A DNA stretch of 64,000 nucleotides. Source: a virus. This document shows positions 10,601-46,242 of the stretch, piece by piece. Under the pieces are notes generated by a model. It was not told the origin of the DNA. It was given only the letters and a program-made list of their open reading frames with translations, and searched no databases. Location: positions 38,432-102,431 of IMG/VR virus record IMGVR_UViG_3300045988_147738, one strand, 5' to 3'. A program made the translations under genes and the position numbers. Every line of letters begins with the position of its first letter. The first letter of the stretch is position 1.

Positions 10601-13600
10601 AAGACAAAGTTAAAATATTGAATTTAGAATAGTTAAAAATTAGAGTTAGAGAATTAATTCCTATTTATGCAGTTCCTTATGATTATATTACTCAAGAAGG
10701 ATGGGATAAATTACCAGACTCCGTTGTTTATTGGAATTCTAATGGTATGACTACGAGTTGTTATAAGGATAAAAAAGAAAAAAGATTTAGTCGTAGTGAT
10801 TATGAAAATTTATTTCCTAGTTAGAATTTATTATATTCAGTAACACCTTTTGGTAAACCTTATCCTATTGATGCATTAACTCCATTAGTCAAAGATTATT
10901 TTGATATTAATGATGAATTTTGTGTATTTTAGATGTTTGAATATTCAAAAGAATATCAAACTTGGATGCCGACTTGTCGAAATAATGTTTTTAATATTGC
11001 TACTGGACAATATTATGATTGTTATTGGCAATCTGTTCTTAAAGAGTATGATACATCATATTATATTGGAGAAAAATATCGTTATGAATAGATAGTCGAT
11101 ATCCAACGGGATGAAGAAACACAACGATATTATATTATAATTCAAAATAAAAAATATTATTTATCAGATGAATTTAATTTGTATGTTGAAATAAACGGAG
11201 AGTATAAATTATTAAAAGAAGTATATTTATTCCCAACTGATGAAGATGGATATTATACTATTATTACTAATAATGATTCTCGTATCCAAGATAATAGTTA
11301 TTTAAATGAAGCTGTTCGTTGGAAAAATAAAGATGATTATAACCCTGTTCCTGGGTATAATTTAACTACTAGAACTATTGATGAAAATAATATTGCTAAA
11401 TCAATAGTAAAAGCTTCTGAAATTAAACCATTTTATTTGAGAATAGATAATGCGATTCAATTAAATCAAGGAGATACATAGTATTATACAAATTTAGGTT
11501 CTCCAAAAGTAATAAAAATTGGAACTGGATTAATCGCTGAAGCTACATTTTAGTTAGAAGTATTAGACTATTTTACAGAAAAGAATGATGATAGTACATT
11601 TTTAGCTAAAAATAGATATTTAGAGCGATCTGAAATCTTAAAGAATTTTTATCGAAATTATGAAATTTTAGGAGATGCTGATAATAATTTTTAGAGATTT
11701 TTAACATTGAGTCGTTTTTATAATACGTTATTAAAAGGATTAACTGATAGCAATAATACTCCTTATGAAGATAAAAATACATATTAGTCTAATTTAAATT
11801 CACCATTGAATTATCAGGATAGAACTATTGTAAATGAAATTTTAAATACCGATAAAGACATAGATTTAAAAAATACTGAAATTGCTGATTTATGGACAGC
11901 AGATAATTCTTCACCTGAAAAGAAAAATAAAATCAAGAATGATATTAAAACTACGATAAATAAAATGCAAATAAATAAACGTATGAAAGAAGAATTAGTT
12001 TTACAAGATACTGAAGAAAATGATTTATTTGATTTAATTAAAAATCCTACTAAAGAAGGTATAAATGATAAATTAGCTAAATTAAATGAACTATATGAAT
12101 TATTAAGTTCTAATAAAAATACTACTATTATAAATAACTAGAATATAGCTTCTGATTATGCTTAGAAATTAAAAAATATAGATTTTGCAGTTAATTCTTA
12201 TAATAATGCAATCTATAATTATAAAGCTCATTTATGGTTGTATTGTTTAATTTATCAAAAAATTGCTAAATTAATATATATTGATACAGATAATTATGAT
12301 GAAAAATTATTAACTGAAGATACATTAGATAAAATGGAAGCTAACATTTCAATTTCTAACATTTTAGCTGAAATAAAAAATCATTATAATAAAATAATAG
12401 AAAATAAAAGTGAGAATGCATCTAATGAAGCAGAATTAATAAAATAGAAAAACTATTATTTAAATGCTTATGGAAGTATTTAGAAAAATTATTCTGAAAT
12501 TTTTACTTATAAATCAATTATAAATGAAAAAGAAGGAGATACTGCATTAGATGAATTATTAATAAAACAATTAATGAATTGTTTATTAGATATTTTTTAT
12601 CAATATTCTGTAATGATATAGGCTCGTAAAAATATAAATGAATTATTGAATGGTAAGGCTTAGGATGAAGATACAGATATATTTAAAAAATATATTGGAA
12701 TTAATGAAAATGCTGATTTGGCTCTCAGTAAAGTTAAACAAAAAATTAATACTTTAAAAATTGAAGTCATTAATAATAAAGACAATTTAACATTAGCAGA
12801 TTTATTTTCATAGTATAATTTTTCTAAAGATAATGTTTCTTATTTTAATTCATTAAATTAGAAATTAACTTATTCTAAAAATAATGTTTTAGGATTTTTA
12901 GATAGTCATGCCACTCAAGTAAAAGAATATGTCCAAAAAATTGATTATATGGAGTATATTTATAAAGGTGGTAAAGCTTTAGAATGGTAGCATTATAATT
13001 ATTCTCATTTTATTGGATTTGATAGATTGCCATATCAATTATGGGATTTAAATTCAAAAGATATAGATATAAAAAATTACACTTATGAAATTGAATTTAG
13101 ATCAAGAATTTTAAAATCATTTAGTTATTGGAAAGATAATAATTTTGGAGAAGAAGCTCCTGCTTATATATCTACTATGAGTTCAAATCAATAGAATGAA
13201 ATACGCAGTCAAGTTAATCGTAAAATTATTTTAGATATTAGTGAAGATAATATTAATACTGATGATTTAGATATTTATACAAGTTTTGAATTTGATGGAT
13301 AGATGGACTCAGCTGAATAGAAAGCTATTCAAAAAATTAAAATTCAAAAATTGTTAAGTATTATTGAGACATTTAAAGAGGCAACAGATTATCGTAGTGT
13401 ATTAGATAGTTTAAGTGATTTAATTTCATATATGAATAAAAATACGAATGGGCTTGGAGAAACTTGTTTTAAAACATTATATGGAGTTTCTGGCGATAAA
13501 GATTTAATTACAATACTTACAAATTATAATTAGACTATAAATTCTATTCAAGATGAATTAATAAAAAGTAATGAATTAGATACTTAGTTTATTAAAATTG

Positions 13601-14796
13601 GACAAATTAGTAAAACTGATTTTGATTTTTTCAATCCTTCTAAAGTTTACTATATTTTAAAAGATGATAATTATTAGTTATAGACTGTTTATTCAAATAC
13701 TGCTATTTATTATTTAAAATTAAAAGATTATTTAGTAAAAACTCATTTTGAATATTATAATGCATTAATGGTAGCAAAAGATTATTAGAATATTACAACT
13801 GAATTGATTTATAGTGTTTTAAATTCTTAGAATACTAAAAAAGCAGAATTTGAATTAGGAAAAATGCAATTATATAATTCAAATGGTTTTGTTCCTACTG
13901 TTATCACTAAAGAAAATTATCAAGAGTGTAATAATTTTGTTTATAATAATGTTACGAAATTTGAACGACAAACATTTGATTCAGCTATTAGTTATGATAA
14001 AAAGTCCAAAGATACATTCTTAGCGAAAAATATCACTGGTGGAGATAATGCATTATCAAGTCATAATAATTCAATTAATGCAATTTTAACTAATTATAAT
14101 AATTTAATAAAGAAAAATGGTATCGTAAATAAATTATATTCAACTTATTCAAAATTAGGCAATACCCCTATTGTTTTTACAGATGAGGGAAATAATGCTC
14201 TTAATGCATTAGATTTGTCTAAAATAAATATAAGTATATTAACTGCATCAGATACAACAGCAGTAGGAAAATTTAAACATCTATTATTAATTAAATATTT
14301 ATCTAAATTTATTAATTTGTTCTATTGGTGCAACACTTAGTTGTTTGTTGAATATGATTTAAATATTCGCTTAGCTGAATTATATACTAATTTACCAAAA
14401 CCATGGTCTGAAGCTTCTGAGAACTATCCTTCTATAACTGCTCATGGTATTGTATATTGGTATTTAGAATATGTTTTAAATAAAGCTATAAATGATTATA
14501 ATGATGCATTGGAATAGGCGGAATTATTAAATATTTTTTATACAAACAAATAGACAAACTATAAAGAGAAATAGGCATTATATGAGGCTAAATATAAAGA
14601 ATATTTATAGATTTTTACAGCATTTATGGCTCCTGAATATAAGGAATATTGGAAATATTATAACTCATCTGATATATTTAATAAAAATGAACAAATGAAA
14701 AAGTTAATTGAAGAAGTCAAAAATCTATGGTATGATTTTATTTTAACTCTTGATAAAGGGTTCAAAAAAGAGATAGAGGCGGGTATGTACCAATGA
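7690..14796 (+). CDS. Giant tail or baseplate structural protein, 2368 aa. It is a single frame-1 ORF spanning eleven ORF-track fragments.
   Basis: AAAGGAG RBS, then ATG at 7690. Frame 1 was hand-verified between every fragment (7953-8299, 8631-8722, 8907-9091, 9519-9889, 10569-11179, 11481-11806, 12141-12238, 12447-13351, 13533-13864, 14340-14796). It contains only TAG triplets until the TGA at 14794-14796. No RBS or start follows any internal TAG. Confidence 0.6.
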
Positions 14797-23990: not shown

Positions 23991-26900
23991 ATGAGCAATA
24001 AACGATTCATCCCTGTTCGTGGTACTGAAGCTAAATTAGATTTAATGGGTTTTAATGATGGGTATGTTTATTTTGCAGTTGATACTGGTAAAATTTTCAT
24101 AGACTATACTCAAGCTGATGGTACAATGGTATCACGAAAGCTTTTAGGAAGCGGTAGTGGTGGTGGCTCAGGAAGTAATTCTGGTATTTATTATGCCAAT
24201 TATACTCCGACTGATGCTGAAAAATTAGAAGATGAAATCAATATTCCAATCGGAGCTATTGAAGGTGGAGAGTACCCTGAAGAAGATGATTTAATTATCA
24301 ATTTAGGTAATAATTGTTTTTATCGTGTAATAAAAGTTCAGCGAGCATTTCAAAATGTGCTATGTCGTCGTTTAACTGTTGCTGGTGGAGGCGGAGGAGA
24401 TGACCCTAGTTCATTGGCTTCTGACATTGAATTAACTGTAGACTCATTACCTACTGTTAACTTAATTAATGGACGCTCTCAAGAAATAACATTTGTTGCC
24501 ACATCAGCTAAAAATAAAAAGGGTAATTCTTATGACTCTATTCTAACAATTAATTGGAAGTTAGAATATACTGATGATGGCACCAATTATAATCAATATA
24601 ATTCAGGAACATTCCAAGTGCCTGATGGTGAGAAATATGCTTTTGAATTTGGTAAATTGGCCAAAGATGATGCTTCTTCAAGATTAGTATTAGTGGCTAG
24701 CCAAACCAATCATCCAAGCACAGTTACTCGTTTGATAACATTTAAAACTTCTAAGTTAGAATTACAAGAATCAAGTAGTTTTTCTAATTTAAGTTATTTC
24801 GAACCTAGTAAATTAGTATTACAATGTAATGTTAATGGTGCTATGGATAAAATTGTTGAATATTATTTTGACAATGAAGATGAACCATTTTTAAGTGTGC
24901 CCTTAGCCGCCAATTCGGCTACATTATAGACTGTTAATGTTTCACAATATACCCCTGTAGTTAATGGTTACCATAAAGTTTGGATTCGTTTATTCCAATC
25001 GATTAATGGCAAAAAAGGAATCGAAGTTAATCCTTTAATTTTTGAAGTAGCTGTTTATGATGGCCTAGACCCTCAAGCTCCTCCAATTATTTGGTTAGGA
25101 GACTATAAAGATGAATATTATAATTATGACACTATTCAAATTCCTTTCCGTGTTTTTGACCCATAGGCTGAAAACCCAGTAGTGCATTTTAAACGTAATA
25201 ATATTGAACTTTCTTATTCTCCTCAAACAATTACAGATTCTAAGAAATTTGCTATTTTTGAAATTGCTAATCCTGAATTAAATGTAATTAATCACTACAC
25301 TATTACTTGTGGTGATGGAGCTCGTGAGACTACTCGTAAAATTGAAATTCGTGTTGTAAATGACCCGACAAGAATAGACTTTGGTATTTAGAAGCAAGGC
25401 TTCTTAACTTATTTATTAAACACAGTAGGTAGTGGACGTTCTAATTCTGAAACGTTGGCTAAACGCACTACTTTAGTAAATTCTTCTACAGCTCTAGGGG
25501 CTGAACCTTGTGCGGCGACGTTTACTAATTTTAATTGGTATAATAATGGTTGGACTACGGATGAAGATAATAAAACTTGTTTACGTATTAGTAATGGTGC
25601 TAAATTATCTATTCCTATTGGTCGCACTGTATTTTCAAATCCTAGTGGCTCTCAAGCTACTGAGCAGTCTCATAGTATTGAATTAACTTTCAAAATTCGT
25701 AATGTTTAGGATTATTCAAATTTAATTCGTACTATTACTCGTTATAAAAATGATGAAAAATTATATAAAGCATTTTATGATGAAGAAACTGGTAAATTTA
25801 ATACTACATACACCAACTATGATGCATTTTTAGCTTGGTATTTAAAAACTTATGAAGTTGAATTTGTTGATAAAAAAGGTAATAAGCGTAGAATGGAATA
25901 TGATGACTTAGAGTTCAGTCATATTGCCAAGCAAATTAATTTAAGTAATGTTATAGGTAGTTACTCTTCTGGTAATACTAAAGCCGTTACTGGTTTATGC
26001 TTAGGACCATAGGATGCGTTTTTCTCTAATGGTACTGATACCGTAAACGTATCTTATGTAGAAAATAAAATTATTACTTTATCTGTTGTATGTAAATATA
26101 GTAAAGAAAAAATTCAAAATTTAATTTATATTTATTTAAATGGTGTACTAACTAGTGTTGTTAGAAACACTCAAGAAAATGGATTTGTTGTAGAAAATGA
26201 TAAAATTGAATTTAACAGTGATTATTGTGATATTGATTTATATAAGGTCCGAGTATATCGCACTGATTTAAACGTTAATGATATTGTCATGAATTATGCT
26301 GCAGATTTTGAGAATGTAAATATTTACGATCAAAATAAATTAGCAGAAGAAAATACTGCTATTGATGAATTCCAGTTTAGCTATACTAATATGATAAAGT
26401 ATAATAATGAACACCCTGATGCCCCATTAATGCCTTATATTATTTTTGATACTACTAAATTAGAAGATAGTGAAAATAAACTTCCTTATTCTAAAAAGGT
26501 TAAATTAAACGTTGGAGTTGAATTTGTTAACACTCCACTTGAAATGTATTATAATAAAGGTAAATTGGAAGAATTGGCTAAGGCTGATAAATTATTTGGT
26601 GATGGTGCGACAGCAGCTGAAAAACAAAAAGCTGTTGAAACTTATTATAAATATCATTGTCCTTCATTTATTAGTGATAGCGCATCAATGAGCGTCCAAG
26701 GAACTTCATCTGAATTCTATCCTCGTAGAAATTATAAAGTTAAAACTAAAAATAACGATGCGGTTGATGGCGAAAAGCGCGTTAATATTTTCTTAAACCG
26801 CGGTCCATTCAGAGAATAGTATAATGCTGATGTATTAGGTTCTACTCAGAAACCTTATATTTTAAGTACAACATTGGGGCCTCTAGTTGATTCTGCTACT

Positions 26901-29900
26901 GGTCAATTAAAAATTAAATATTATGAAGATGAAAATGGTGAAAAGGAAGTTACATTTAGTGAGACTAATCCTTATAAACCTAATACTTTTTATATTGAAA
27001 ATACTGCTTACGTAAAACGTGGCAATGAAAAAACTCGTCAAAAATATTGGTATTTTAATAATTATACTTGCGGAACTCATAAATTTACTATGAAGATTGA
27101 CTACATGGAATCTTCTGGAACTTATAATATGGGATTTGCAAATATGGTTAAAAATGCTTATTCTAAACATCCATTAGACGATTATAATAATGCAAAAGCA
27201 TTTTAGGTTTTAGACCCTGACAAAACTGTTGAGACTGAAACAACTGAGTATGTTCCTGGAACTACTTATACTTATTATAATCATAAGGGTAATCCGAAAA
27301 CAGCAAGTAATGAAGTCTTAGAAGATAATATTGTGATTACCAGCAAAGAAGATTTTGATTTAGGTCCATACGCATTATATCAAAAATTAATGGCTGAAAA
27401 TCCAACTGTTTATTCAAAATTAAAAGTAGCTGATTCAAGTAATCCTAAATATAATAAATGGTATATTATGAAACCTGGATACAGCGATTTTAAGGTTGAA
27501 AATACTGATGATTATCGTACTTCTGTACGAGGGTTCCGTGTACTTGCATTCCATAAAAAGAAACCAGTCGATGGTAGCACAGAGCCTATTTATCAATTTA
27601 TTGGTATATACAATATGCTTTTAGATAAAGGTTCTGATGAAGTATATGGATTCGCACTTGACAGCACTACTGGTAAAGATCCAAAAGCTAAATTTATAGG
27701 CGATGGTACTAAGAGTATGCCTAAAGTAGCAGAATGTTGGGAGTTTGAAAACAATAGCCGCACCTTCTGCTCATATCGTGACCCACAAGACCGCAAAGAT
27801 TTGAAATTTGATGTATTTAATGCTGATGGTTCTCGTGTATTAAATGCAGTTCAATCTGCCCCTGTGGTAGCAGACTCATTTGAATATCGTTATCATAATG
27901 ACGAAGATATTCTTGATTATATTATGGCTCCTGATGGAGAATGTAAAAAAGACCCAACATTAACATTCTCTAAGGATGATATTACATTAAATCAAGAAAA
28001 TCGCGCTCAGCATTTATTGAAAGATTATTCTAATTGGGAACGCGCTGTAGCTTGGGTTTGGAGTACTTGTACTGAAAAAGTTGTATCAAATGGTACTTAT
28101 AAAATTTGTGATGTTGGTGAAGAGTTATTTGATAGTAATAAACATTATATTATGACAACTAATCCATTAACTTCTGAATAGATTTATACCTTAGCTGAAG
28201 AATATATAGAAGGCACTACTTATTATAAAAAGAATCCTGACTATAATCCTAATCAAGAAAATAGTCATGAATATATTGTTGCTTATGTTGGAACAGTATT
28301 ATTTAGTGCTATTAAAACTAAATTATATACTGGTGAAATTGATAAAAATAATAATATTACTTATGTTCCTTGTTATAGTACTGATACATTTAACCCCGAT
28401 AAACGTTATTATACTTTGGAATCTTATAGCGATGAAGAGTTAGATACAAAGGCTGATAGATTAGTTGTTTTATGTAAAGATGAAACATTTGATGCAAGTA
28501 AAACATATTATAATTATGATGGAAATGCTAAATGCGGTAAAGCAGTGACTAAAGCTACTGTAACTGCTGAAACTTATGAGCCAAATAAATATTATATTGG
28601 AACCACTATTATTTATGGTGACCGCTCTTATAAATATGATACACAAGAGTATCGTGGTGATAAATTTACTTATGAATTAAGTGACCACTTCGATAAAGAA
28701 TATATGGCTACATATTTTGTTATGACAGAAATTTTTGAATGTTATGACTCTCGTGGTAAAAACTGCATGATGGCTTCTTGGGGTCCTCAAAAGAAAGGCG
28801 GAGACTATATTTGGTATCCAATTTTCTATGATATTGATACTCAATTAGGTATTAATAATACTGGTATCCCTTCATTTGAATATAATGTTGATGCTACTGA
28901 AGATGGTAACTATTCTACTTCTGATAGTGTTTTATGGAATAACTTCTATAAATATTTTAAAACTGGTTTAATTATCCCTAAATATAGACATTTACGTGGT
29001 ATTACTACTGATGTATTTGATTCTAATTTAAAACAACCACCTTTAAAAACTGTTGATCGTATTGAGTCATATTATTTAACTGATTATAATATAACAAATA
29101 ACTTAGCTGACTTGGGCACACGTCCATTAGTAGCAGTTAATTTAGATGAATATTATAAATATATCACTATTACGAATGATGCTTCTTACTTAGATGGTAC
29201 TACTGGACATATTAGTAGTGATACAACTGGTGTATATACTGTTGATACTAATGGTACTTATTTCTATGCTTTACAAGGAAATAGAAGTCTATCTCGTCAA
29301 CAGTTCCTATCTAACCGTTTAGAGTATATTGACTCTTGGTTAAATGAAGGTAACTATCAACGTGGTGGTGCAAACCGCATTCGTGGTCGTGTTGCTGCGA
29401 ACAATAAAAATAAAACTTCAGATAAATGGATTGAAACTGCTAGCGAGCCTTATTTCAAAGATGAAAGCACTTTAACTAAAAATCATTTATTTGATGCTGA
29501 ATATTGGATGACATTAACTCCAGCCCACTCTTCTTATGTTACTCTTGGTGATGACAATGAAGCCTATCCTTCTCGTAAATATGATGGTGTTCATGCACTA
29601 AGATTTAATATTGATTCTATTGAAAATGGTGTCCGTAAGAGTGAAAATTATCCTGAACAATTACTATATGTTTATGGTATTAATCAAATGAAAGACCTTG
29701 GCGATATGAGTAATCTATATTGGCAAGAGTTTGAAATTTCTGGTGATGCTACTAAATTAACTAGTTTGAAATTAGGATATGATGGTTTGGATGAAAATGG
29801 AGAGCGTTGGCATAATGACAATGTTAACCAATTCAGTATTCCTGCCAGCTCTTCTGATAGTAAAGGCATGCCCTTATTAAAAGAAGTAAATATGAGTAAT

Positions 29901-32165
29901 ATTCAATTTAATGCTGCTTCTCCTATATTAGATTTAACCAGTTGTGAAAAATTAGAGAATTTCCGTGCTACTGGTTCTAATTTAATTAATGTCTAGTTTG
30001 CTAAAGGCGTCGCATTAAATACTGTATATTTACCTACTAGTATTACAAATCTTGAATTAGTTGAAGCTAATTTATTAAAGAATGTAATCACTGAAGATGA
30101 ATATGAGAATCCTATCCGTGATGATGAAGGTAATTTACATGCTAATCCTGGTTTATATCTCCAAGGTTTCTTTGATAAAACCTCAACTGGAGATAAGGGC
30201 GATACAGTAATTGCTTCTCTAAATATTGCTGGTGGTGGCTTAGGCTATGATAGTTATAAACTATTAAAACAATATTATGCTATCCGCAGTCAATAGACTA
30301 ATACTTCTCAAATTTCTATGACCGATGTTAATTGGTGTCCATATGTTTAGATGACTGTTGATGATGAACGTAATCCATCTACTATTTATTATGTGGATAA
30401 TGGACATTATGGACTAGAACCTTATACTTATACTAATTTTGATGCATGGACTATTAAAGTTGAAAATGGTGAAATTTATCGTAAGGATGAAACAATTCCA
30501 GAAGATAAAATAAATCAAATTACTGATTTAGCTATGTTTAAAGAATTTATTAGTGATAAAAAATGGGTTAAAAATTCTAGTAAAAATATTCCTGATATCT
30601 CTGGTATTATTTATATTAATAATACAGAAGTTATTAAAGAATCTGAATTACGTAATATTATTCAAGTCGCTTATCCTGATTTAACAATTTTCTGTGCAAA
30701 CGTTGAATAGGGATATACTGCTAGATTTGTAATTATGAATGAAGATGAAGGTAATGACGGTCGTTATCAGTTAATTGGCTCTATGACTTTAAAAGATGGC
30801 GAAACTTGGTTTGCTGATCCTATTGATACATTTGGTGATGTTAGTGAGAAAAAGCCGAATCATGATTTCTATGGTTGGGCATTGACAAATTCTGCTAGCG
30901 CTGATATTCTTATTAATATTGATAAAAGTATCAATAAATGGAATGAACAAACTCTTGATAATAATATTCATACTTATACATTCTATGCTATTTGTCCTAT
31001 TCACAAATGGAGTGTTAAATATTATTATAAAGATAGTACATTAATTGAAGAGAAAAAAATCCCTCATGGTAATTATGCTGTAATGTCTACTATTATTCCT
31101 TGGAAAGATGATAGTGATTTACCATTGGAATAGACCTATAAATTCTTAGGATATAATCGTTCTGCTACTTCTAATACAGTTATGAAATTAGAAGAATATA
31201 TGATTACTGAAGATACTACTTTCTATGCCGTATTTGATTCTAATCCTATAAGTGTTTATGATGATATCCATACTGAATATTTTGAGCCTACTACTCAAGA
31301 ATATAATTCACTATCTTCTCCATCTTCTTGGATATTTAGCGATCCAACAGAAGGTTTTAATAGTAAATGGTCTGTAATGAGTGATGGTATTGTTTTAGGT
31401 TTATGCAAAAAAGTTAAAGGTAAATTGACAGTTCCTGCATTTTATGAATACAATGGTAAAAAATTAAAAGTTATTGGTATTGATGCTTCATTTAGTTCTC
31501 CTGGTGATGTTACTAATAGTAACCAAGCAACGCCAAATGCTAAAACGATTGGTGGTAATACTATTGTAGCAACTTGTTATGGAGAAGATTTAACTCATGT
31601 ATTCTTCGAGAAGTATACTGATAATGATGGTAATTAGAAATGTAATATTAGAAAATTTAATATCGCTACATTCTCTCATTCTTATGGTTTAAAATGGGTA
31701 GAATTCCCTGAAGGCTTACGAGTAATTGATGCTTACTGTTTTGCTTTAAATGGCGATCGTGATAAAAAATTAGTTGGTTCTTTAGAAAATGCTAATATTA
31801 GTGGAACAATTACTGAAATAGGTTAGAGCGGATTTAAAAATAGTTTTAGTCCTAAAGTTGAGACATTAATTATTGGTCCTTCTGTGAGCTATATTGATGT
31901 TCAAGGTATTGATTTCTGGTCTAATTCAGATTTGAATAAAGGATTAACTGGTGGTATTAATAAAATTATTATTGGTACTCCAGAAGAAAAATCTAAATTA
32001 TATACTTAGAAAAAGCTCGATTATGGTTCAACAGGTATTAGAGGATATAGAACCAATGCTGATCGTAAGATTAATAGTATTGATTGGTATACTACATTAT
32101 CTCGTGATGATACTATTTCAGTCTTTGGTAGCGGTATTGATACCAGTACGGTAAATTATTTATAA
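23991..32165 (+). CDS. Giant fibre or receptor-binding-type protein, 2724 aa. It has the shared N-terminal module and C-terminal BspA-type leucine-rich repeats.
   Basis: AAAGGAG RBS, then ATG at 23991. Frame 0 was hand-verified across all eleven ORF-track fragments (25182, 25455, 26289, 26874, 27333, 28416, 30351, 30735, 31182 and others) with only TAG triplets until the TAA at 32163-32165. N-terminus: MSNKRFIPVRGTEAKLDLMGFNDGYVYFAVDTGKIFIDY. The C-terminal region near 31640-32160 has IG..AF...IxIPxSV-type repeats. Confidence 0.6.
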
Positions 32166-35151: not shown

Positions 35152-35229
35152 GGGTAAATATAAATAATATTTTGATGTAAATTTTTATAATAAATGTATA
35201 TAATTTACAAAGAGGAAAGGAGTTATAAA

Positions 35230-36897
35230 ATGCTTAAAAAAGGCGATATAATTACTCTTGACTTAGGTGATGGATATGGTAATAGAAAATATCGTATTTT
35301 AAAAATAGATGGCCCTATAGCTGAAGTTTTAGGTTTATTTGATTTAAATTATGGACAAGTAATACCTTACACTAAAGATGTATCTCACACAATTACAATT
35401 GGTAATATTACTTTCCAAAATTATAATAACAATGAAATTGATCAATTTATAAATAATGAATGGTATAATGATCATTTATCCAATAAAGCAAAATCAGCAA
35501 TTTAGCCATAGTTATTTAATCAAGATGTTTGGTATTTTACTATTAACGGTTATTTACACAATGGTTCTCCTAAATATAATGGCGCTTATAGTAATGGTAG
35601 TTATCAAATTAGTAATGCTGGTATATTTTCTACTATTGGACCTAAATATATTCGCATCCCAGGAGTCCAAGATATTTTAGATTATTTTGCAGATAAAGAT
35701 TTAAGAGTCGATCCTGAGGGTATATTTTCTAGTAAAAATATTTGGAAAATGTTTTGGGATCAAGATAAGGGCAACTCTGAAATGATGTGGCTGTCTTCTA
35801 GTTCTGCAAATGATTCTACAAAAGTTGGATTTATTGATGGTTCTACTGGATTAGTAAGTATGCAAGGAACTGCTACTTATATAGGTACAGTTCATCCAAT
35901 ATTTACTATTGATTTAACTCAATTTTTACCTTTAGAATTTAAACAGTATATTTCTCCTTATACAAATACAGTTATTTTACAAGATGATGCATTAAATTTA
36001 TTAATGCGTATGACAAAATGTTATCCTATTGCGGGAGATGGTACTGGTATTACTTTGGTTCCTACTCCAGATGATTAGCATATTCAAATATAGAATGCTA
36101 TAAAAATTTATTCAGTCTTAAGTGATGGAACGGCTGAAGAAAAAGAAAAGCATCCAGGATGTATTTGCATTTGGGATACTTCAGCTAGCAAAAATAATAA
36201 ACAATATATTTAGGCTGGTTCATTATTAGATTTTTATACAAGTGAATTATCATCTGGCCTTAAAGGAAAAGACATAAAAGCTAATCAATATGGCTCTTTT
36301 ATTCTTATTAAAAATAAAGATTATAAAAATCCTATTGTCGTTCCTATTAAAGGATTTGACAGCCAAGGAAATTTAATTTTACCAGGAAAAAAAATTCAAT
36401 CTGCTATAATTGAATCTACTGGAGCTATTACGGCCACTGGTAATATTACTTCAAGTGCTATTATCACAGGGAAAAAAGTGCGTGGTGCAGTATTTAATGA
36501 TTATGCTGAGTATAGAGAATCTTATATTAAAGAGCCTGGCCGTTGTGTAATTGAAACTGGTTATGGAGATTTAGAATTGTCAACTAAACGTTTACAATTG
36601 GGCGGCAATATTATTTCAGATACATTTGGTTTCTCTATTGGCGAAACAGATAAGGCACAAACTCCTATTGCTGTTTGTGGTAGAGTATTAGCTTATCCTG
36701 ATGAAAATAAAGAATTATATAAGCCAGGAGCGGCTGTGTGCAGTGGTCCAAATGGAACTGTGTCATTAATGACTCGTGAAGAAATTAAAGAATGGCCTGA
36801 TGCAATAATTGGGTATGTAAGTGAAATTCCTTATTATGATACTTGGGGAACTGATAATATTAAAATAAATAATAGAATTTGGATTAAAATAAAATAA
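35230..36897 (+). CDS. Structural protein, 555 aa. Its C-terminal domain of about 140 aa is shared with the tail fibre at 40970-43693.
   Basis: AGGAAAGGAG RBS, then ATG at 35230. The ORF-track ATG at 35194 lies inside the promoter-like TATAAT region. Frame 1 was verified through fragments 35749 and 36478 to the TAA at 36895-36897. The C-terminus ...AVFNDYAEYRE...DTFGFSIGETDKAQTPIAVCGRVLAYP...CSGPNGTVSLMT...RIWIKIK is paralogous to the C-terminus of the 40970 gene. Confidence 0.6.
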
Positions 36898-36904
36898 AAA
36901 AAAA

Positions 36905-36938
36905 TAGCAGATAACTGAAATGTTATCTGCTATTTTTT
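36905..36938. terminator. Bidirectional rho-independent terminator between convergent genes
   Basis: TAGCAGATAAC, loop TGAAAT, GTTATCTGCTA. The hairpin is flanked by an A-run upstream and a T-run downstream. Confidence 0.7.
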
Positions 36939-38247
36939 ATAATTCAGTTGATATATTTTTAAAATAACTAATTTGATTATTTATATCATATACCCCTGAA
37001 ACAATAATTCTTTTTAATGTAAAATTATCATTTAAATTAGTATAGTCATTAGGAATAAGTGCCTCAAAATTTACATAATAATAATCAATATCTTTATCAT
37101 ATATATGTTGTCCTACATTAATTATTGACCAAATTGTATCTTTAAATTTTATTTTATTAAATTTTATATTATCAAAATAATTTATTGCAATTAAATATAA
37201 TAAATTTGCTGGTGTTTCACGGTGATTAATAGTAAAAGTAGAAGTATTTACATCTCCAAAATACTAATAATTACCTGTCCAAACTTGAGGCATTGTATCC
37301 ATATTAACATAAATTACTTTATTATTATCATATTCCCATTTTGTTACTACAGTATTATGAGTATTTTCAAAATATATGGCAAAAGGTATTGTTATTGGTA
37401 GTGTTATTTTATTAAAATTTAAAAGAAAAGCATAATATAATGTTGTATTATTTTTTGCTGTCTCAAATTCTGTTGCATTTTGGATAGTATGATTGTCATC
37501 TGTAAAATAAAGAGAATAATATCCTTTACTAAGCCAAATATAAAAAATTGAATTTATTTCTAAAGCATTTACTTCTTCTGTTGAAAGTTTAACTAATTCA
37601 GACCCAGAGCGTTTATATATTCTATCCTCATAATTTTCTTTATAATAAGTTAATTCTTCTACAGTTTTACAATTTATATCAATGAAATCAGTATCTGCTT
37701 TAGTAAAATAATAAACATTTTCATTATAACTTTGTTTAGGGTCTACGGGATAAAAATTCGTTTCTTGACTGGTAATATAAACAATATTATCATAATTAGA
37801 ATTATTAAAATACTGTTGAACTTCTTCCAAAGCTAAATAACGATATTTACCTAAATTTTCATTCTGTAAATTAAACAAAGCTGTTTTTAAATTTAAATTT
37901 AATTCTGCAATTTCTTGAGCAGTAGGTAATGGTAATGAATCTTTTAGATTATTTTCAATTGATTCAATTTTATTGGCATTTATACCTGTTGTGGTAATAA
38001 GAGTGCCAATATCACTTTTATTAGAGTTTATTCTGTCATTTAATTTTTCTTGCTAAGTTGATAAATTATCAATAGTATTTTTAAGAGTTTCTAATGATTC
38101 AACAGTTTGCTATAAATTTGCTATTTTATTCTATAAGTCAATAATATCCTAAGCATTGATATCATCAAAATTTAAATTATTAATTTTATTTAAAATTTCT
38201 TGCCACAAAGCTTTAATGCTTTCATCGGTCCAATAATAATTATTCAT
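36937..38247 (-). CDS. Minus-strand late-type protein, 436 aa. Coiled-coil N-terminus and beta-rich C-terminus. Five in-frame TAGs.
   Basis: The ATG at 38247 has a GGAGGA RBS. The frame was hand-verified down to the TAA at 36937-36939, through TAGs that include the one ending ORF-track fragment 37264-37878. Confidence 0.55.
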
Positions 38248-38328
38248 ATTATATTTCCTCCATTCTCTTTATAAAAATAAAAAATATAAATAAAAAATTA
38301 TTTATATCTGTCCAATTTTAATTATAAT

Positions 38329-38357
38329 TTGACATTTATAATTTTTTATGGTATACT
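38329..38357 (+). promoter_or_regulatory. Near-consensus sigma70-type promoter driving the Cys-rich / radical-SAM cassette
   Basis: TTGACA (38329-38334), exact 17-nt spacer, TATACT (38352-38357). An AAAGGAG RBS and the ATG at 38384 follow. Confidence 0.55.
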
Positions 38358-38383
38358 TAAATTATATGAAAGGAGATTTGCGA

Positions 38384-39160
38384 ATGGCAGCGACTGATTT
38401 TTCTTCTTTATTTGCTGGAGAAAAAATAAAAAAAGCAGATTTAATTTAGTTAAAACAAGAAATACGTGAAATGATATTAAAACGTATGTATAATATTAAT
38501 ATTTCACAATATGGTTCTAGTTTATATGATTATACTGATTCTTAGAAAGATTTAACACTTCAAGATGAAGAGATTATTAATGATTATTTTAATAAGATTT
38601 TAGAGCCTATGCAAGCCATTAATCCTACTAAATTAGGATTTAACGAAAAATATGATGCCACCTCTAAAAAAACAACTCTTTTCAAATAGGATGAAGCTAT
38701 TCCAAATTTAAAAGAATTAATTTCATTTTTTTAGATTTGCCAAGCTGAAAAAAATCAAAATAAATTAGATATTAGTAAGAGTAATTGTTTAAATCAATGT
38801 ACTGGCATGTGCGTTAACTTATGTGCTATTGGATGTACTGCACGTTGTGCTAGTAGTTGTTCTGGAGACTGTGAAGGTCGAACTTGCCAAAGTGGTTGTG
38901 ATGCAGGTTCAGGAGGCTCCACTCCAGACCCTGATCCTACACCACCCCCTAGTGGAGGAGGCGGCGGTGGGTGTCCTTGTACTGGAAATTGCACGGGAAG
39001 CTGTAATATTGCTTGCACAACTACTTGTCACGGTGGATGCCATGGAGGATGCTCTGGGTATGCTTGCAGAAATGATTGTAATAACACATGCTCTGGCAAC
39101 TGTGGTCGTAGCACTTGTACGGATATATGTAATGGTGGTACATAGGGCTCTATGCATTAA
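38384..39160 (+). CDS. Cys-rich repeat protein, 258 aa. A roughly 140-aa N-terminal region with 4 TAG codons is followed by a roughly 115-aa C-terminal CxxxC-repeat region. Candidate substrate of the radical-SAM maturase.
   Basis: Frame 2 was hand-verified from 38384 to 38807, and on to the TAA at 39158-39160. The C-terminus reads CTGMCVNLCAIGCTARCASSCSGDCEGRTCQSGCDAGSGG...PPPSGGGGGGCPCTGNCTGSCNIACTTTCHGGCHGGCSGYACRNDCNNTCSGNCGRSTCTDICNGGT. The surrounding ORF-track entries 38794, 38823 and 38909 are GC-rich artefacts of this region. Confidence 0.6.
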
Positions 39161-39193
39161 TATAAAAAAGAGTAAAAGGAGATTTTATTATAA

Positions 39194-39472
39194 ATGATTA
39201 AAAAAGTTCAAATTCCTCAAGAAATTATTTTAGAGGTTCAACGATTATGGTTTGAATATCAATCTAATTTAAATATTTTAGGTTATTTAATGACTTAGAA
39301 TGATATTAATAAAGAATTATTAGCAGAATATAATTAGGATACTAAAATTCGATTTACTGAATGTGAAATGTATAAACAAAAAATAGCAGATTTATATAAC
39401 CCCTTTGATTTTAATTGTCAATATATTTTTGATTTTGATAATAGTTTAATTCAATATAGTAAAAATGATTAA
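39194..39472 (+). CDS. Small cassette protein, 92 aa, translationally coupled to the maturase gene
   Basis: AAAGGAG RBS. Two in-frame TAGs. The TAA stop at 39470-39472 overlaps the ATG at 39465 of the next gene. Confidence 0.45.
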
Positions 39473-40823
39473 AAGAAATAAAATTCAAGAACATTCAGAA
39501 ATAATTCATAATTTATATAAAGAGTTATATCCTAACGCTAATAATATTTTATGTCCTTCAATTACATTTCAAGTAACAGACGATTGTTGTTGTAACTGTA
39601 GCTATTGTTATCAAGGAAATAAAAATAAACATTATATGACTCCTGAAACTGCTATACAAATTGTTGATTATTTATTTGATCTATATGAGAAAAATGATAT
39701 TAATAATTTGATTAATAAAAATACAGCAGGTATTATATTAGAATTTATTGGTGGAGAACCATTGATGAATATTGATGCTATTGATGCGGCTTGTACTCAT
39801 TTTTTAAATTATTGTTTAATTCATAATCATCCTTGGCTACGAACTTTTAGAATTTCAATGATCTCTAATGGAAAATATTATTTTGATTCAAAAGTTCAAG
39901 ATTTTTTAAAACGTTTTCATAATTTTATTTCTTTTGGTATTACTTTAGATGGCCCAGAAGATATACACGACAAATGTCGTAAATATTTTGATGGAACAGG
40001 TAATTTTAAAGATGCTTTTGCAGCATTAAAATACCATAATCAGCATTATAATTAGATTAGAACCACCAAAGTCACTATTGCTCCAGAAAATTTATTAGAG
40101 ATAAATAAATTAATTGATTTCTTTATAAATGAAGCTGGCGCTACTGATATTTTTATGAATCCTGTATTTGAAGCAGAGTGGACTAATGAAGAAGCTTCTA
40201 TTTATTATTAGGAATTAAAAAAAATAGCAGATAAAATGTTAAATGTTAATCAATCAAATGAATTAATTAATAATATAGTATTTGCTGATAATATTGGATA
40301 CCCATTAGAGGATACTGATACTTTAAATTGGTGCGGTGGTACTGGCGCAATGATGAGTTTTGATTATAAAGGGAAAATTTACCCTTGTATTCGATATATG
40401 GAATCATCATTGGGGAAAGAAAGAGAGCCTATTATAATTGGTTCTATTAATACAAATGATAATAATGAAAAATATTTAAAGAATTTAGAAAATTTAAAAA
40501 AAATTACTCGACAATCTCAATCTACAGAAGAATGCTTAACTTGTCCAATTGCTGCTGGATGCGCTTGGTGTTCTGGGTGGAATTATTAGTTATACGGCAC
40601 ACCCAATAAACGCTGTACTTATATTTGCCCAATGCATAAAGCTCGTGTCTTAGCAAATGTTTATTATTGGAACAAGCTTTATAAGATTAAAAATCAAGAT
40701 AAAGTATTTGAGTTAAATCTTCCAAAAGAAGAGTGTTTAAAATTTATTAATGAAAATGAATATAATATGTTGTTAGAATTAATTCAAAAATAGAAGGACA
40801 AAATAAATCAAATAGATAATTAA
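39465..40823 (+). CDS. Radical SAM enzyme with a C-terminal SPASM/twitch-type Cys cluster, 452 aa (peptide or protein maturase family)
   Basis: CxxxCxxC in DDCCCNCSYCYQG near the N-terminus. C-terminal WCGGTGAMMSFDYKGKIYPCIRYM...CLTCPIAAGCAWCSGWNY. Frame 0 was verified through TAGs at 40053, 40209, 40587 and 40791 to the TAA at 40821-40823. Confidence 0.75.
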
Positions 40824-40889
40824 CTCTTTCAAAAATATATATGAAAGAGTAAGATACCTTTCAAAATATTATAATTTTATTTATTTTTA

Positions 40890-40935
40890 TGGGAAAGTCT
40901 TACTATAGGCTTTCCCATTTTATTTTTTTTTTATT
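40890..40935 (+). terminator. Rho-independent terminator after the cassette
   Basis: GGGAAAG...CTTTCCC hairpin followed by a long T-run. A second hairpin, CTCTTTCA...TGAAAGAG, sits at 40824-40850. Confidence 0.65.
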
Positions 40936-40969
40936 TTTAAACTTTTTTTCAGAGAAGGGAGTTTAGTTA

Positions 40970-43693
40970 ATGGCTTTATTTAAAATTAATAAAGGTTTAG
41001 CAACAAACTTAGCAAAGAATATGCCTTATGCCAAAGAAGGCTTTGCATATTTTACTAAAGATGATGGTAAATTTTACATTGATATTGATGGTGATGGTAC
41101 TACTACTAAAGCTGAAATTAATGTCAATCGTATACCATTAAATGCTGCTAAAGCTGATATAGCTACAATGATTCAAGCTACAGCAATGGCAACTGATGAT
41201 AGTAAAGTATATCCTATTTTAGCATTTAATATAACTGATTCTACTAAGAATTTAGTTGAAGCTAAGTATAGCCAAATTGGCATTAAAAATGGCACTCTTG
41301 TTATTCCAAGTGTTGAAGATAAAGATGAAATTCTTATTTCTAATGAGGGCCTTGGCCGAGGTATTGTTATTGATAACAAAGGTACTAATAATGCTATTGA
41401 AATTCTTAATGGTAAAGGTATTAAAGTTGCACAAGATCCAACTGAAAATTTAGAATTAACTACTAAATAGTATGTTGATAATAAATTAGCTAATAAATCA
41501 AATACCGGACATAATCATGATGCAACCTATAAAAAAATTCAAACAGCAGTACCTAGTCCTAAAGCATCTAATACAGATATTTCATTTATTGATACAGTAT
41601 CATAGGATACTTAGGGTAAAATTACTGCTACTAAAAAAACAGTAAGAGATGCTTCAGCTAGTCAATCCGGTGTTGTATCTACTGGGACTCAAACATTTGC
41701 CGGAGAAAAAACATTAAATAATAAAACTCATTTTTCTAAAGGCTTTGATCTAAAAACTGATAACGGAAATGCTTAGTTTAATGCTAATACTGTAAGTGTT
41801 AGCGGTGGTACTGATTATGTTGATTTATATGCCTCTACTGTTGGGGGTGGAAATGACAATAAGGCTAGACCATTAGTATTAAATGCTAATGCAAATGGTT
41901 CTGGTAATGTAGGTATTGGAATTACTTAGCCAACAGAGAAATTAGAGGTAGATGGCAATGTTAAAGCCATTTAGTTTAAAGGTAATGCTGATACAGCTGA
42001 TAAATGGAAAACGGCTAGAAAACTAACAATTGGTTCCACTGGAAAAGATGTTGATGGTAGTGCTGATGTTAACTGGTCATTAGATGAAATTGGTGTAGCT
42101 GCAAAAAAACATACTCATACTAAATCAGATATTACAGATTTTGCCCATACACATGATGATAGATATGTTATTAAGTCTGGCGACACAATGAGTGGAACAT
42201 TGAGAGTCCTTGAAAATGGTATCGGTAGCGATCTTAATAATGATGGAGTATCTCTTGCAAATAATTCAATTCTCTTATGTAGTGGAGGCTATGAGGATTA
42301 TGAATATTTTCAATTGGGAGGAACATCACAGCGTCCTGATATTTTTATAGATCGTCCAGGAAATCCAATAACATCAACTTCATCATTACCGAGAGATGAA
42401 AATATTCCTTCAGAAGCTCCTGCTTTATCCATTCGAGGTAATAATTTACAAAATGGATTTACATTTTATATAGATAAATTAATAGACCCTGAGAATTCGC
42501 TTGATACTGGTATGGGAAAGATATGGCTTCGTTCATTAACCAATCAAGCCGTTCAATTAAAAGGTATTTGCGGTCCAACAGAAGATGAGGATGCTGCTAA
42601 TAAATATTATGTTGACAATTAGATATCCACAAAGAATACTAATTTAATGGGTATAGTTTCTCACACTTATGTTAAAAAATCCGGTGACACAATGACCGGG
42701 GATTTAACTCTTAATAAAAAATTAATAGCAAATAATCTTATAGTTTTAAAAAATGGATAGACTTATGGAACCAGCGCTCCTACCAGTGGCACAACTGGTC
42801 AGTTATTCTTCGCTCAAGATACTAGTGATTCAGATTATTTGCCATTAACAGGTGGTACATTAAGTGGTAATTTAACTCTTAATGAAAAATTATTAATTAC
42901 TAATAAAATGTATGGAACTACAAAGCCTAACAATCCAGTAGAAGGACAAATTTTCTTCCAAGAGAATGATGGCTCTTTAACATTACCTGCTGGAGGAACA
43001 GCTGGATAGTATTTAGTTAAAAATAGTTCTAATGATAGCGATGCTAGTTGGAAGAGTTTACCTGCATTAAATTATTTACCATTATCTGGTGGTACTTTAA
43101 CAGGAAATCTTACTATTTCTCATTCAGATACAAATGATGCTACTGTTCGTGTTACTAATTCAAAAGGATCTATCGGATTATTATCTTCTACCAATCGTGG
43201 TCTATATGATTATACTAAGAGTAAATGGTTAATCTATACAGATGGTACAAAAGCTTCAACTTCTTACGCGTTATATGGCGCAGTATGGAATGACTATGCT
43301 GAATTCCGTGAAGGAGATACTATTGATGCTGGTCGTTGTGTAGTTGAAGTTGGTGATGATACTCTTATTACTTCGACTGAACGTTTGATGCCGGGTGCGA
43401 ATATTACATCTGATACATTTGGTTTTGCTATTGGTGAGACTGAACAAGCTAAAACTCCAATAGCAGTAAGCGGACGTGTTTTGGCTTATCCATATGAATC
43501 TCGTGAAGAGTTTAAAAAGAATGTTGGACGTCCAGTATGTTCCGGCCCTAATGGGACAGTTTCTATTATGACTGATGAAGAATATAGAAATAAAGGTTAT
43601 TGCGCGATTGGCACGATTTCAGCAGTTCCTGATTATGAAGAATGGGGAACTGGAAAAGTTAAAGTTAATGGGCGCGTATGGATTAAAGTGTGA
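40970..43693 (+). CDS. Tail fibre protein, 907 aa
   Basis: GAAGGGAG RBS. The N-terminus MALFKINKGLATNLAKNMPYAKEGFAYFTKDDGKFYIDIDGDG carries the shared module. Fibre-type repeats include SGDTMSGTL, KKSGDTMTGDLTLN, HTHTKSDITDFAHTHDDRY and LPLSGGTLTGNLT. Frame 2 was hand-verified across 41470-42188 and 42622-43385. Stop is TGA at 43691-43693. The C-terminal domain is shared with the 35230 gene. Confidence 0.7.
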
Positions 43694-43714: not shown

Positions 43715-45442
43715 ATGGCAACTTATGATTTAGCAACAACATCTCCAAGCTTTACTTCCTTGCGAGCCGGAGATATTATAAATTGTTCATATAGTGGAGC
43801 AAAAAAAAATATTGATCTTCCAGCTGGTACTTATAAGTTAGAAGTATGGGGCGCTTAGGGAGGCAGTAGAAATACTAACAATCAAGGCGGTCCAGGAGGT
43901 TATTCAATAGGTACTTTAACATTAACTACTAAAACAACGCTTTATATTTATAGTGGAGGGCAACCAACAGCAGTAAAAGTTGGAGGATTCAATGGTGGTG
44001 GAGCTGGTTATACCTCTGGATATGGAGGAGGTGGAGCTTCTGATATCCGCATCGCTAAAGATAGTTTATATGCTAGAGTAATTGTTGCTGGCGGCGGAGG
44101 AGGAGCTTGTTATTCAGTTACTTTAAAAGGAGCTGGTGGAGGTACATAGGGCCTCGGAGGAAGTAATAATGAAACAACTATCGCCGGAAGTAATAGAAGT
44201 GGCGGTGGAGGCACTCAAACTCAAGGAGGCCACCCTTACGCTATAAGTGTTACTACTTATCCTGAAGCTGTGGGAACTTTTGGAAAAGGTGGAGCTGGTG
44301 GCGCAGGTAAAATTGGATATAGTTGTGGTGGAGGCGGCAGCGGCTGGTATGGTGGCGGCGGCGCTTATGATAATGACTCTGATTCTGATGGAAAAAGTGG
44401 CGGAGGCGGCAGTGGTTATGTATATACAAGTACGACTGCTGCTAATTATCCATCTGGCTGTTTATTAAATAGTAATTATTATTTAGCTAATGCTTCTACA
44501 AAAAATGGTACTGTTTCATTTGTAAAACCTGCGGGAGGAAATGAAACAGGACATACTGGCAATGGATATGCTCGTATTACTATATTAACTACAACAGCGA
44601 AAACTACTTATACTTTCAATGTTAATGGAGGCGCTTCTACTCCCGCTTCAATTACTGTAAATTGGGGAACGACTAAAACATTACCTTCTGCTATTAATCG
44701 AGCAAGTAAGGGAGTTAATTTTACTACTCTTTGTTACGGTGCAGGTGGTACAGATGTAACAGCTACTGGGCTAAAGACTGCTAATTATACATTTGCTGGA
44801 TGGAATACTAATGCTCAAGGAACTGGGACTAATTATAATGCAGGAGCTTCTATCTCATCCTCATCAACGGGAGCGACGAATTCAGTTACTTTATATGCAA
44901 AATGGAATGTTAGTTATAGTTATAGCGCTAATAACCAAATTAAAACTATTCCTCATCCTACCAGGGCCAATTCTACTACTTCTTTTACTATTAAAGGAAA
45001 CTGTAATGGTGGTATAAATAATACTTCATTAACTGGCAATTAGACTATTTCTTATACTTTTACCGGATGGAATAGTTAGTATGATGGAAAAGGTACGGCT
45101 TATGATATAAATTCAACTGCTACATTTAATGAAAGTACAATGCTTTATGCTCAATGGAATTAGACAATATCTTATAATAATAATACTATTAATTTATTAC
45201 CAATTCCTACTCGGTCTAAATATATTTTTACAGGATGGAATACTGCAGCAAATGGTAGTGGAGGGACTTATCCTAAAGGCTCTACTGAATAGATTAAATC
45301 ACCATAGACGTTATATGCTCAATGGTAGAGAGAAGCTTACAATTATGTTCCGTTTATTTATACAAATGGAAAATGGGTAAAAATGACTCCATTAATTTAT
45401 AATAATGGAACTTGGACAAATAGACTAGTTGATTTAAAATAA
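43715..45442 (+). CDS. Gly-rich fibre or adhesin-like protein, 575 aa, with three Listeria-Bacteroides-type repeats
   Basis: AAAGGAG RBS, then ATG at 43715 in frame 2. This is the frame of ORF-track 44270, not 44247. Gly-rich stretches include GGFNGGGAGYTSGYGGGGAS and GGGGSGWYGGGGAY. Repeats: YTFAGWNTNAQGTGTNY...VTLYAKWN, YTFTGWNSQYDGKGTAY...MLYAQWN and IFTGWNTAANGSGGTYP...TLYAQW. Frame verified to the TAA at 45440-45442. Confidence 0.6.
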
Positions 45443-45828: not shown

Positions 45829-46242
45829 TTAATCTTCAACCTTTTTAGGCTGAGCTTTATTTGTGTTGACCTCAGACTCGATTTTAGTAGTAATATATCC
45901 ACTTAAATCACCAAGGGCTTCATCAAGATACTCTTTAGCATCTTCAGTCAGAATACCCATTACGGCGTCATAAGTCTTTTTGAATGCTTCCAATTGAGCA
46001 TTTTTATCAAATGCATTTTGCCCCTTCAGACTTTCAACATATGTTTGATTTGTTGCTAATACACAATCAGTAATTGTTTTATTAAGCATGTCCATATATT
46101 TTTGAAGAGTTTCATCATTGGTTTTAGCCTTCAATTCATTGGTTTTAGACTGAATAAAACGAACCAAGAATAAAGAGACAGCTGTTAGTACTGGAACAAT
46201 AAGAATATTGAAAATTTGTTGTAGCATTTCTAGCCAATCCAT
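45829..46242 (-). CDS. Holin-like protein, 137 aa. N-terminal transmembrane helix and long coiled-coil tail, LL-H-holin-like architecture.
   Basis: AGGAGG RBS. MDWLEMLQQIFNILIVPVLTAVSLFLVRFIQ followed by a charged helical region. No TAG codons. Confidence 0.45.
   Translation of the reverse strand: MDWLEMLQQIFNILIVPVLTAVSLFLVRFIQSKTNELKAKTNDETLQKYMDMLNKTITDCVLATNQTYVESLKGQNAFDKNAQLEAFKKTYDAVMGILTEDAKEYLDEALGDLSGYITTKIESEVNTNKAQPKKVED

Follow-up and report, generated by a model that had tools for sequence, protein, structure and literature searches.

What does a peptide-modifying radical S-adenosylmethionine (SAM) enzyme do among the tail genes of a gut phage? The question is raised by three genes on the plus strand of a 64,000-nt stretch of viral DNA (positions 38,432 to 102,431 of IMG/VR virus record IMGVR_UViG_3300045988_147738), which was analysed at its full length and is called the window here. 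All coordinates are those of the window. The genes, designated A, B and C, lie within 38329..40935 and encode a 258-amino-acid (aa) protein ending in a ladder of cysteines, a 92-aa protein and a 452-aa radical-SAM/SPASM enzyme. The cassette is a divergent member of a catalogued system, the CXXX-repeat radical-SAM system, and in the loci sampled this system is a component of phage tail modules; both of these statements are firm. In the reading that we prefer, to which a probability of about 0.55 was given, C, helped by B, cross-links A into a tail-associated protein that is made late.

Family assignment of the enzyme

Gene C (39465..40823, plus strand, four in-frame TAG codons) was assigned using hidden Markov models (HMMs). 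The top family was NCBIfam TIGR04115, “radical SAM peptide maturase, CXXX-repeat target family”, which was matched with 338.1 bits (E = 8e-101, cutoff 350) over model positions 3-359 of 359, more than 185 bits ahead of the next family. PapB (NF047865) was second with 152.6 bits (1.5e-44, cutoff 340) and QhpD (TIGR03906) third with 79.7 bits (1.7e-22, cutoff 453). The SCIFF maturase model gave 68.6 bits and anSME (TIGR03942) gave 51.8 bits (cutoff 349). PHROG 1802, “radical SAM domain-containing protein”, matched at 5e-51. Scores for the general domain models were 27.9 bits for PF04055 (gathering score 29.5), 22.8 for Fer4_12 (gathering score 22) and 26.2 bits for the SPASM model TIGR04085 (cutoff 27).

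An initial annotation, made from the letters and their reading frames, had proposed a peptide-modifying maturase and had named grouping with anSME or another non-peptide class as grounds for giving that proposal up. The family scores support a radical-SAM/SPASM maturase that modifies peptides or proteins, and by the same scores assignment to anSME or another non-peptide class was rejected. C was also rejected as an orthologue of PapB, its score lying below half of that family's cutoff.

The radical-SAM cluster motif, C41-x3-C45-x2-C48, is encoded at 39585..39608, and the SPASM region (40332..40628) contains seven conserved cysteines in the pattern C290...G303-x4-C308, C357-x2-C360-x5-C366-x2-C369, C388. 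Among 86 homologues that use the standard code, C41, C48 and the seven SPASM cysteines were present in all 86 and C45 in 83, so the CxxxCxxC motif and SPASM cluster read from the sequence alone are borne out. The sole solved relative found by sequence was the thioether-forming enzyme CteB (5wgg; E = 3.9e-14). The alignment starts at CteB residue 94, which corresponds to residue 28 of the phage enzyme, and C therefore lacks the N-terminal peptide-recognition domain of CteB.

The cysteine ladder and its family

Gene A (38384..39160, plus strand) ends with a TAA stop and was confirmed at 258 aa by translation, by the ribosome-binding site AAGGAG beginning at 38370 and by homologues P0001-P0003. 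Four in-frame TAG codons had been reported in its N-terminal half; these were found at aa 22, 54, 102 and 117, together with a fifth at aa 254. The more than 30 cysteines that had been claimed were not found: the count is 25, of which 24 fall within the last 124 aa. The C-terminus had also been described as almost pure C-x3-C. The spacing is indeed mostly CxxxC, with 18 of 24 gaps between successive cysteines being exactly four residues (a number equalled in 0 of 100000 shuffles), but the repeat is divided into two blocks. Block 1 (C135-C172, 10 cysteines, CxxxC spacing) is encoded at 38786..38899 and block 2 (C197-C249, 14 cysteines) at 38972..39130, and they are separated by a Pro/Gly-rich linker, DAGSGGSTPDPDPTPPPSGGGGGG, at 38900..38971. 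Residues 1-134 (38384..38785) form a mostly helical N-terminal domain that is conserved across the family.

The conserved part of this domain comprises the first 100-130 residues and includes the motifs LK..VKAE..RR, YDY and EH..K. An HMM of the domain found 291 cluster representatives among 1.84 billion proteins, and a Cys-rich stretch was present in 76 of the 89 listed matches of at least 140 aa. The same profile had no match among PDB sequences. Proteins of the family are 152-891 aa long, and full-length homologues of A retain every cysteine as well as the N-terminal domain. In 70 distinct family members the number of cysteines ranges from 11 to 88 (median 36), with 82% of gaps CxxxC and 15% CxxC, and S, T and G predominate between the cysteines. 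The ladder begins with a motif common to the family, C-x3-C-[ST]-G-[LMT]-C, and the last cysteine is followed by a tail of 5-9 residues that is often aromatic.

When the Cys-rich protein was searched against precursor and target families, as the initial annotation had suggested, relatives of A were found to match the target class expected for the enzyme. Among 15 homologues tested, 7 matched TIGR04114 and 9 matched TIGR04117, both of which describe Cys-Xaa-Xaa-Xaa repeat radical-SAM targets; the homologue at locus L004 passed the TIGR04114 cutoff (21.3 vs 20). A “faint” precomputed match to PF27846 (tSAM_targ_Cxxx_rpt) is listed for P0001, which is 88% identical to A. An ordinary metal-binding domain, which the initial annotation had named as a finding that would refute it, was rejected, as no Pfam, NCBIfam or PHROG family supports it.

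One family member, P0091 (543 aa), has an extra domain inserted between the N-terminal domain and the ladder. The inserted domain matches a “host range and adsorption protein” family (2.5e-14) as well as tail protein, tail fibre and PblB-type receptor-binding families and, weakly, CBM_4_9.

The small coupled protein

Gene B (39194..39472, plus strand, two in-frame TAG codons) encodes the 92-aa protein. The stop of B and the start of C share 8 nt (ATGATTAA), in agreement with the overlap read initially. No match was found for B in NCBIfam, Pfam, PHROG or the sequences of the PDB. Its structure was modelled with AlphaFold2 (AF2) through P0004, which is 95% identical, and the model (mean predicted local distance difference test score, pLDDT, of 92) has the topology beta-alpha-alpha-beta-beta. 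The sole convincing structural matches obtained with Foldseek against viral models were three uncharacterised gut-phage proteins, with TM-scores of 0.83-0.91. We considered whether B might be a PqqD-like recognition element (RRE) of the kind used by maturases of peptides that are made on ribosomes and modified after translation (RiPPs). Such elements are winged helices in which a three-stranded sheet is followed by three helices, and the proposal was rejected because the predicted fold differs. B nevertheless most likely recruits A to the enzyme or presents it there, since it is coupled to C, which lacks the ~90-aa N-terminal recognition domain of related maturases. Note that P0049 (334 aa) reads as an in-frame fusion of A and B; a true fusion would support an A-B interaction, and it may alternatively be a read-through call in a recoded phage.

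Conservation in related loci

Related loci were collected by pattern scans, which yielded 80 viral loci and ~40 loci in genomes of Firmicutes with enzymes 35-59% identical to C. The genetic code of each locus was set by counting in-frame stops inside the radical-SAM gene. On this count TAG is a sense codon in 20 of 122 loci and TGA in one, and the other 101 keep the standard code. The genome matches were to Faecalibacterium, Blautia, Oscillospiraceae and Lachnospiraceae; the hosts of this phage group are strictly anaerobic gut Firmicutes.

In 112 of 121 loci the strand that carries the enzyme gene also has a Cys-rich stretch no more than ~4 kb away (upstream in 86, only downstream in 26). Several of the nine loci that have none are contigs that end 1-2 kb from the enzyme gene. 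By HMM search, 83 of 122 loci have the N-terminal domain of A, and 79 of 122 have a member of the B family. It had been suggested that failure of the three genes to be conserved together in related phages would count against a functional cassette; the pairing of enzyme and Cys-rich stretch is kept, and A and B recur with it. The orders A-B-R, A-X-B-R and B-R-A were observed, R being the radical-SAM gene. Gene X, which encodes ~190-205 aa, separates A from B in 35 loci; the window does not have it.

Two cassettes are present in some phage contigs of ~259 kb, namely IMGVR_UViG_3300045988_125976 (loci L148 and L155) and IMGVR_UViG_3300045988_138928 (L120 and L146). The copies in the former are distinct. 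Those in the latter lie at the two ends of the contig and may reflect a terminal repeat.

Position in the tail module

The initial annotation had placed the cassette between tail-protein genes, and this holds. Upstream, at 35194..36897, is a gene for a 567-aa tail-fibre-like protein, and downstream, at 40970..43693, one for a 907-aa tail-fibre protein that matches PHROG 26292 and 21722, both tail fibre (both plus strand). Each of these proteins closes with the same ~135-aa domain, designated TFC and detected by HMM at 36490..36897 and 43280..43693, with the pattern GAV[FW]NDYAE...SDTFGF.IGET...VCSGPNGTVS...WIK. TFC had no match in Pfam or among PDB sequences and may be an uncharacterised C-terminal chaperone or processing domain of fibres. 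A TFC-domain protein was found upstream on the same strand, mostly ~3 kb from the start of the radical-SAM gene, in 48 of 122 loci.

Neighbours sampled from the related loci match PHROG tail, tail-fibre and virion structural families, and the commonest PHROG families among the 90 nearest neighbours were tail fibre, tail, tail collar fibre and endolysin. Three of these 90 neighbours match a reverse-transcriptase PHROG, a hint of diversity-generating retroelements in tail-fibre regions.

Transcription signals, timing and evolution

A sigma-70-type promoter (38329..38357, plus strand) precedes the cassette, as had been noted from the sequence. It consists of TTGACA-17-TATACT with TG in the spacer before the -10 element, matches the consensus at 11 of 12 positions and is the sole 11/12 match, hence the best, in 36800..41100. 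The ribosome-binding site of gene A, AAGGAG, is at 38370..38375, 8 nt 5' of the ATG at 38384. In the related locus L164 the -35 element, spacing, -10 element and ribosome-binding site are all kept despite a synonymous divergence (dS) of ~1-1.9 in the coding sequence of A. The terminator expected behind the cassette was also found (40889..40935, plus strand), as a hairpin with a 12-bp stem (40889..40918) and a following T-run, and is 92% identical in L164 and in a further relative, L167. Directly after the stop of the radical-SAM gene and 5' of this terminator there is an additional inverted repeat, CTCTTTCA...TGAAAGAG (40824..40849), which is kept in L164 and L167.

In-frame TAG codons occur at 1.37 per 100 codons in the cassette, 1.35 in tail genes and 0.27 in replication genes. 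The density in the cassette thus matches that of tail genes and is ~5 times that of replication genes, which fits the initial suggestion that these genes, needing TAG to be decoded, are expressed late alongside virion proteins. That A, B and C are made late is indicated by a promoter and terminator of their own and by TAG codons as dense as in the tail genes.

Rates of evolution differ along the cassette. Between the window and L167, the ratio of nonsynonymous to synonymous divergence (dN/dS) was 0.09 for the N-terminal domain of A, 0.61 for its Cys region, 0.19 for B and 0.09 for C. Relative to L001, which is 99% identical, A has three amino-acid changes, each of them in the Cys region. In comparison with L164, the proteins A, B and C are 60-79% identical (dS 0.7-1.9) and a flanking 202-aa gene is 96.5% identical in protein (dS 0.24). 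The segment 34491..40935 is mosaic in this comparison, with divergence ending at the stop codon of C and identity of 92% right after it. Since divergent A, B and C genes lie between similar flanks in L164, the cassette has been exchanged there independently of its surroundings and moves as a module.

Genetic code and genome layout

The window has a GC content of 29.7%. TAG is a sense codon in this phage. When it is read as such, the summed length of open reading frames (ORFs) of at least 100 aa rises from 11431 to 21600 aa over the whole window, and fragments join, the longest resulting ORF having 2724 aa. Of TAG, CAA and CAG codons taken together, TAG accounts for 37% in tail genes and 8% in replication genes. 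At aa 375 of C, which is the best-conserved TAG position, homologues have Gln (n = 36) or Glu (n = 42), with Gln in the closest relatives; these residues fit Gln as the meaning of TAG, short of proof. No tRNA genes, and hence no suppressor tRNA, were found within the 64-kb window. The cassette is 99% identical to that of IMG/VR contig IMGVR_UViG_3300045988_160359 (197.6 kb).

The tail block occupies 235-45442 on the plus strand and includes giant ORFs, tail-fibre proteins and, as judged by sequence, a 1504-aa tape-measure-like protein. The giant ORFs include 7690..14796 (2368 aa, 45 in-frame TAG codons) and 23991..32165 (2724 aa, 16 TAG codons). A holin gene (45829..46242, minus strand) lies 3' of the block and is followed by a minus-strand replication block whose products resemble NrdD, Pol III alpha, a helicase and RecJ in sequence.

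Within the plus-strand tail block there is a lone minus-strand gene, at 36937..38247, for a 436-aa protein with a coiled-coil N-terminus; it is kept in L164 and L167. A hairpin with a 17-bp stem (36899..36938) follows this gene and could terminate transcription on both strands. Directly 3' of the downstream tail fibre, at 43715..45442, is a gene for a 575-aa protein with an ALK/LTK glycine-rich domain (PF12810, 8e-45) and Listeria-Bacteroides repeats (PF09479).

Proposed mechanism and alternatives

In the mechanism that we propose, the radical-SAM/SPASM enzyme C, which has two auxiliary clusters besides its SAM cluster, would act on A, encoded two genes upstream. The helical N-terminal domain of A would serve as a handle, leaving the 24-Cys ladder in (C-x-x-x)n register to be modified. 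B, translationally coupled to C, would bring A to the enzyme. By analogy with PapB, CteB and QhpD, C would turn the Cys thiols into redox-insensitive thioether cross-links, and the cross-linked domain should be compact and resistant to proteases and to reduction. Mature A would then be incorporated into the virion as a tail-associated component of the fibre or adsorption apparatus, which is suggested by the position of the cassette and by one domain fusion, P0091. A possible rationale is that thioethers, unlike disulfides, would resist reduction in the anaerobic gut, and that an anaerobic host lets a radical-SAM enzyme work. We propose more tentatively, as a possibility that falls short of probable, that the whole CXXX-repeat radical-SAM family is mainly a phage tail system, in which phages of strictly anaerobic gut Firmicutes employ an oxygen-sensitive enzyme in the cytoplasm of the host to staple a fast-evolving ladder of 11-88 cysteines into a thioether-laced fibre tip or adhesin that withstands reduction. 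If so, no earlier virion protein would be known to owe its maturation to a radical-SAM enzyme of the phage, and receptor-binding domains would be built in a new way.

Several observations weigh against cross-linking of A into a tail component. C scores 12 bits less than the curated cutoff of TIGR04115 requires. A from the window is below the cutoff of every target model, its sole NCBIfam match being to TIGR04118 (E = 0.0018, 18.2 bits, cutoff 35), and the fold predicted for B is not PqqD- or RRE-like. The AF2 model of P0001, through which A was modelled, has a pLDDT of 46, with three N-terminal helices and a ladder without confident structure. Because the residue at Cys+4 is Cys again in 18 of 24 gaps, Asp/Glu acceptors of the PapB type are mostly impossible and the chemistry may differ. 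Phage accessory genes (“morons”) classically show the same layout, a private promoter and terminator where tail genes meet lysis genes, and fast-evolving residues between cysteines would suit a hypervariable RiPP core equally well. Finally, a search of the phage record collection for close copies gave two unannotated gut contigs only, and no isolated phage.

Some of these points lead to an alternative that we consider unlikely, namely that the cross-linked C-terminus of A is a released RiPP-like product, or the product of an accessory gene, acting away from the virion, following lysis or from a lysogen; it might be a superinfection-exclusion factor, a signal, a bacteriocin or a toxin. The enzyme falls in a clade of RiPP maturases, and the wider family has small-peptide members such as TIGR04118 (a 46-aa profile). 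The cassette is autonomous in having its own promoter and terminator, related cassettes lie at the tail-fibre/endolysin junction, where accessory genes are frequent, and evolution between the cysteines is fast, as in RiPP cores. Against such a product, no leader peptidase or exporter was found around the cassette in the window or among the commonest PHROG families of the 90 neighbours. Members of the A family, at 152-891 aa, begin with a ~100-aa domain under purifying selection (dN/dS 0.09) in place of a short leader, and the strict definition of a RiPP (short leader plus core, protease, export) does not describe a 258-aa protein with a 134-aa conserved N-terminal domain and no peptidase or transporter gene. 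For this phage, a lysogen in a standard-code host could not express the genes, since their translation needs TAG decoding. The phage adsorption domain in P0091 argues against release and equally for a structural or adsorption role over an intracellular one. An intracellular role outside the virion was judged quite improbable. Here the ladder would bind metals or Fe-S clusters, or A would be a tail-fibre assembly factor or scaffold or an anti-defence decoy, and the enzyme would modify A for that purpose or would modify another protein such as the fibre. The 24 cysteines in 124 aa, with small residues between them, do resemble metal-binding proteins, fibre chaperones are often encoded just after tail-fibre genes, and the repeat region alone is not folded by AF2. 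No metal-binding or chaperone family was matched in Pfam, NCBIfam or PHROGs, however, and the strict pairing with a SPASM maturase of the thioether clade (112 of 121 loci) points to covalent modification of the repeat.

A trivial explanation was considered as well, in which the Cys-rich ORF is low-complexity, non-coding or mis-framed and has no relation to the radical-SAM gene, an auxiliary metabolic gene in this view. The GC content of the Cys region (0.48, vs 0.30 for the window) and the several overlapping ORFs in other frames and on the opposite strand would suit such an artefact. Comparative data refute it, and we regard it as extremely improbable: full-length homologues keep each cysteine and the N-terminal domain, that domain is under purifying selection, the pairing with the enzyme is kept across more than 100 loci in standard-code and TAG-recoded phages alike, and the ribosome-binding site and promoter are conserved.

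Implications

The initial annotation stated that no cassette of this shape had been described. That claim does not stand, since the gene family is already in NCBIfam/TIGRFAMs (TIGR04114-04118), Pfam (PF27846) and PHROG (1802). The CXXX-repeat system was reportedly defined by bioinformatics by Haft and Basu in 2011. Neither a published function of the system nor a link to phage tails was found in the literature searched, which excluded the 2011 defining paper. The kind of system is thus known at the database level, where the family has a descriptive name only, and no experiment on it was found in the literature searched. The window and ~120 related loci place the family in phage tail-fibre modules and give it protein-sized substrates.

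If mature A is indeed a tail or adsorption component, enzyme-installed thioether stapling would join the short list of covalent virion reinforcements. Such a role would also explain why the system tracks anaerobes. RiPP enzymologists would have at hand a natural enzyme acting at dozens of sites of a folded protein. Gut phages, including those with recoded stop codons, would have a new and rapidly diversifying candidate determinant of host range. If the product is released instead, it would be an unusually large phage-encoded RiPP.

Comparison with known systems

The tail-fibre tip adhesins of the gp38 type in T-even phages offer an analogy of position and layout only. These are proteins of ~260 aa encoded beside tail-fibre genes, in which the N-terminal part serves for attachment and is conserved and the C-terminal part is Gly-rich and evolves fast. 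Unlike A, gp38 has no Cys ladder and needs no radical-SAM enzyme.

Among radical-SAM systems, QhpD provides a precedent for the cross-linking of a protein. This SPASM enzyme installs several Cys thioethers in QhpC, which stays in a larger assembly and is not released as a peptide; its substrate and biological context are unrelated to those of the phage cassette. CteB, the SCIFF maturase, aligns with C over the radical-SAM and SPASM regions. The phage enzyme is without the first ~90 residues of CteB, and is coupled instead to a separate 92-aa protein, B, with an unrelated predicted fold. PapB, the maturase of the ranthipeptide freyrasin, is like C a SPASM enzyme acting on tandem Cys-x3 motifs, and joins each Cys by a thioether to the Asp at Cys+4. 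The phage protein A differs in having Cys rather than Asp/Glu at Cys+4, and in being a 258-aa protein, not a short peptide.

The CXXX-repeat system itself (enzyme TIGR04115; targets TIGR04114, TIGR04117, TIGR04118 and PF27846) differs from the phage cassette in the shortfall of both C and A from its cutoffs, and in that the N-terminal domain of A and the whole of B match no NCBIfam model. It is alike in its essential parts: the enzyme matches the full model, the neighbouring protein has a C-terminal Cys-x-x-x repeat, and relatives of A reach the target models.

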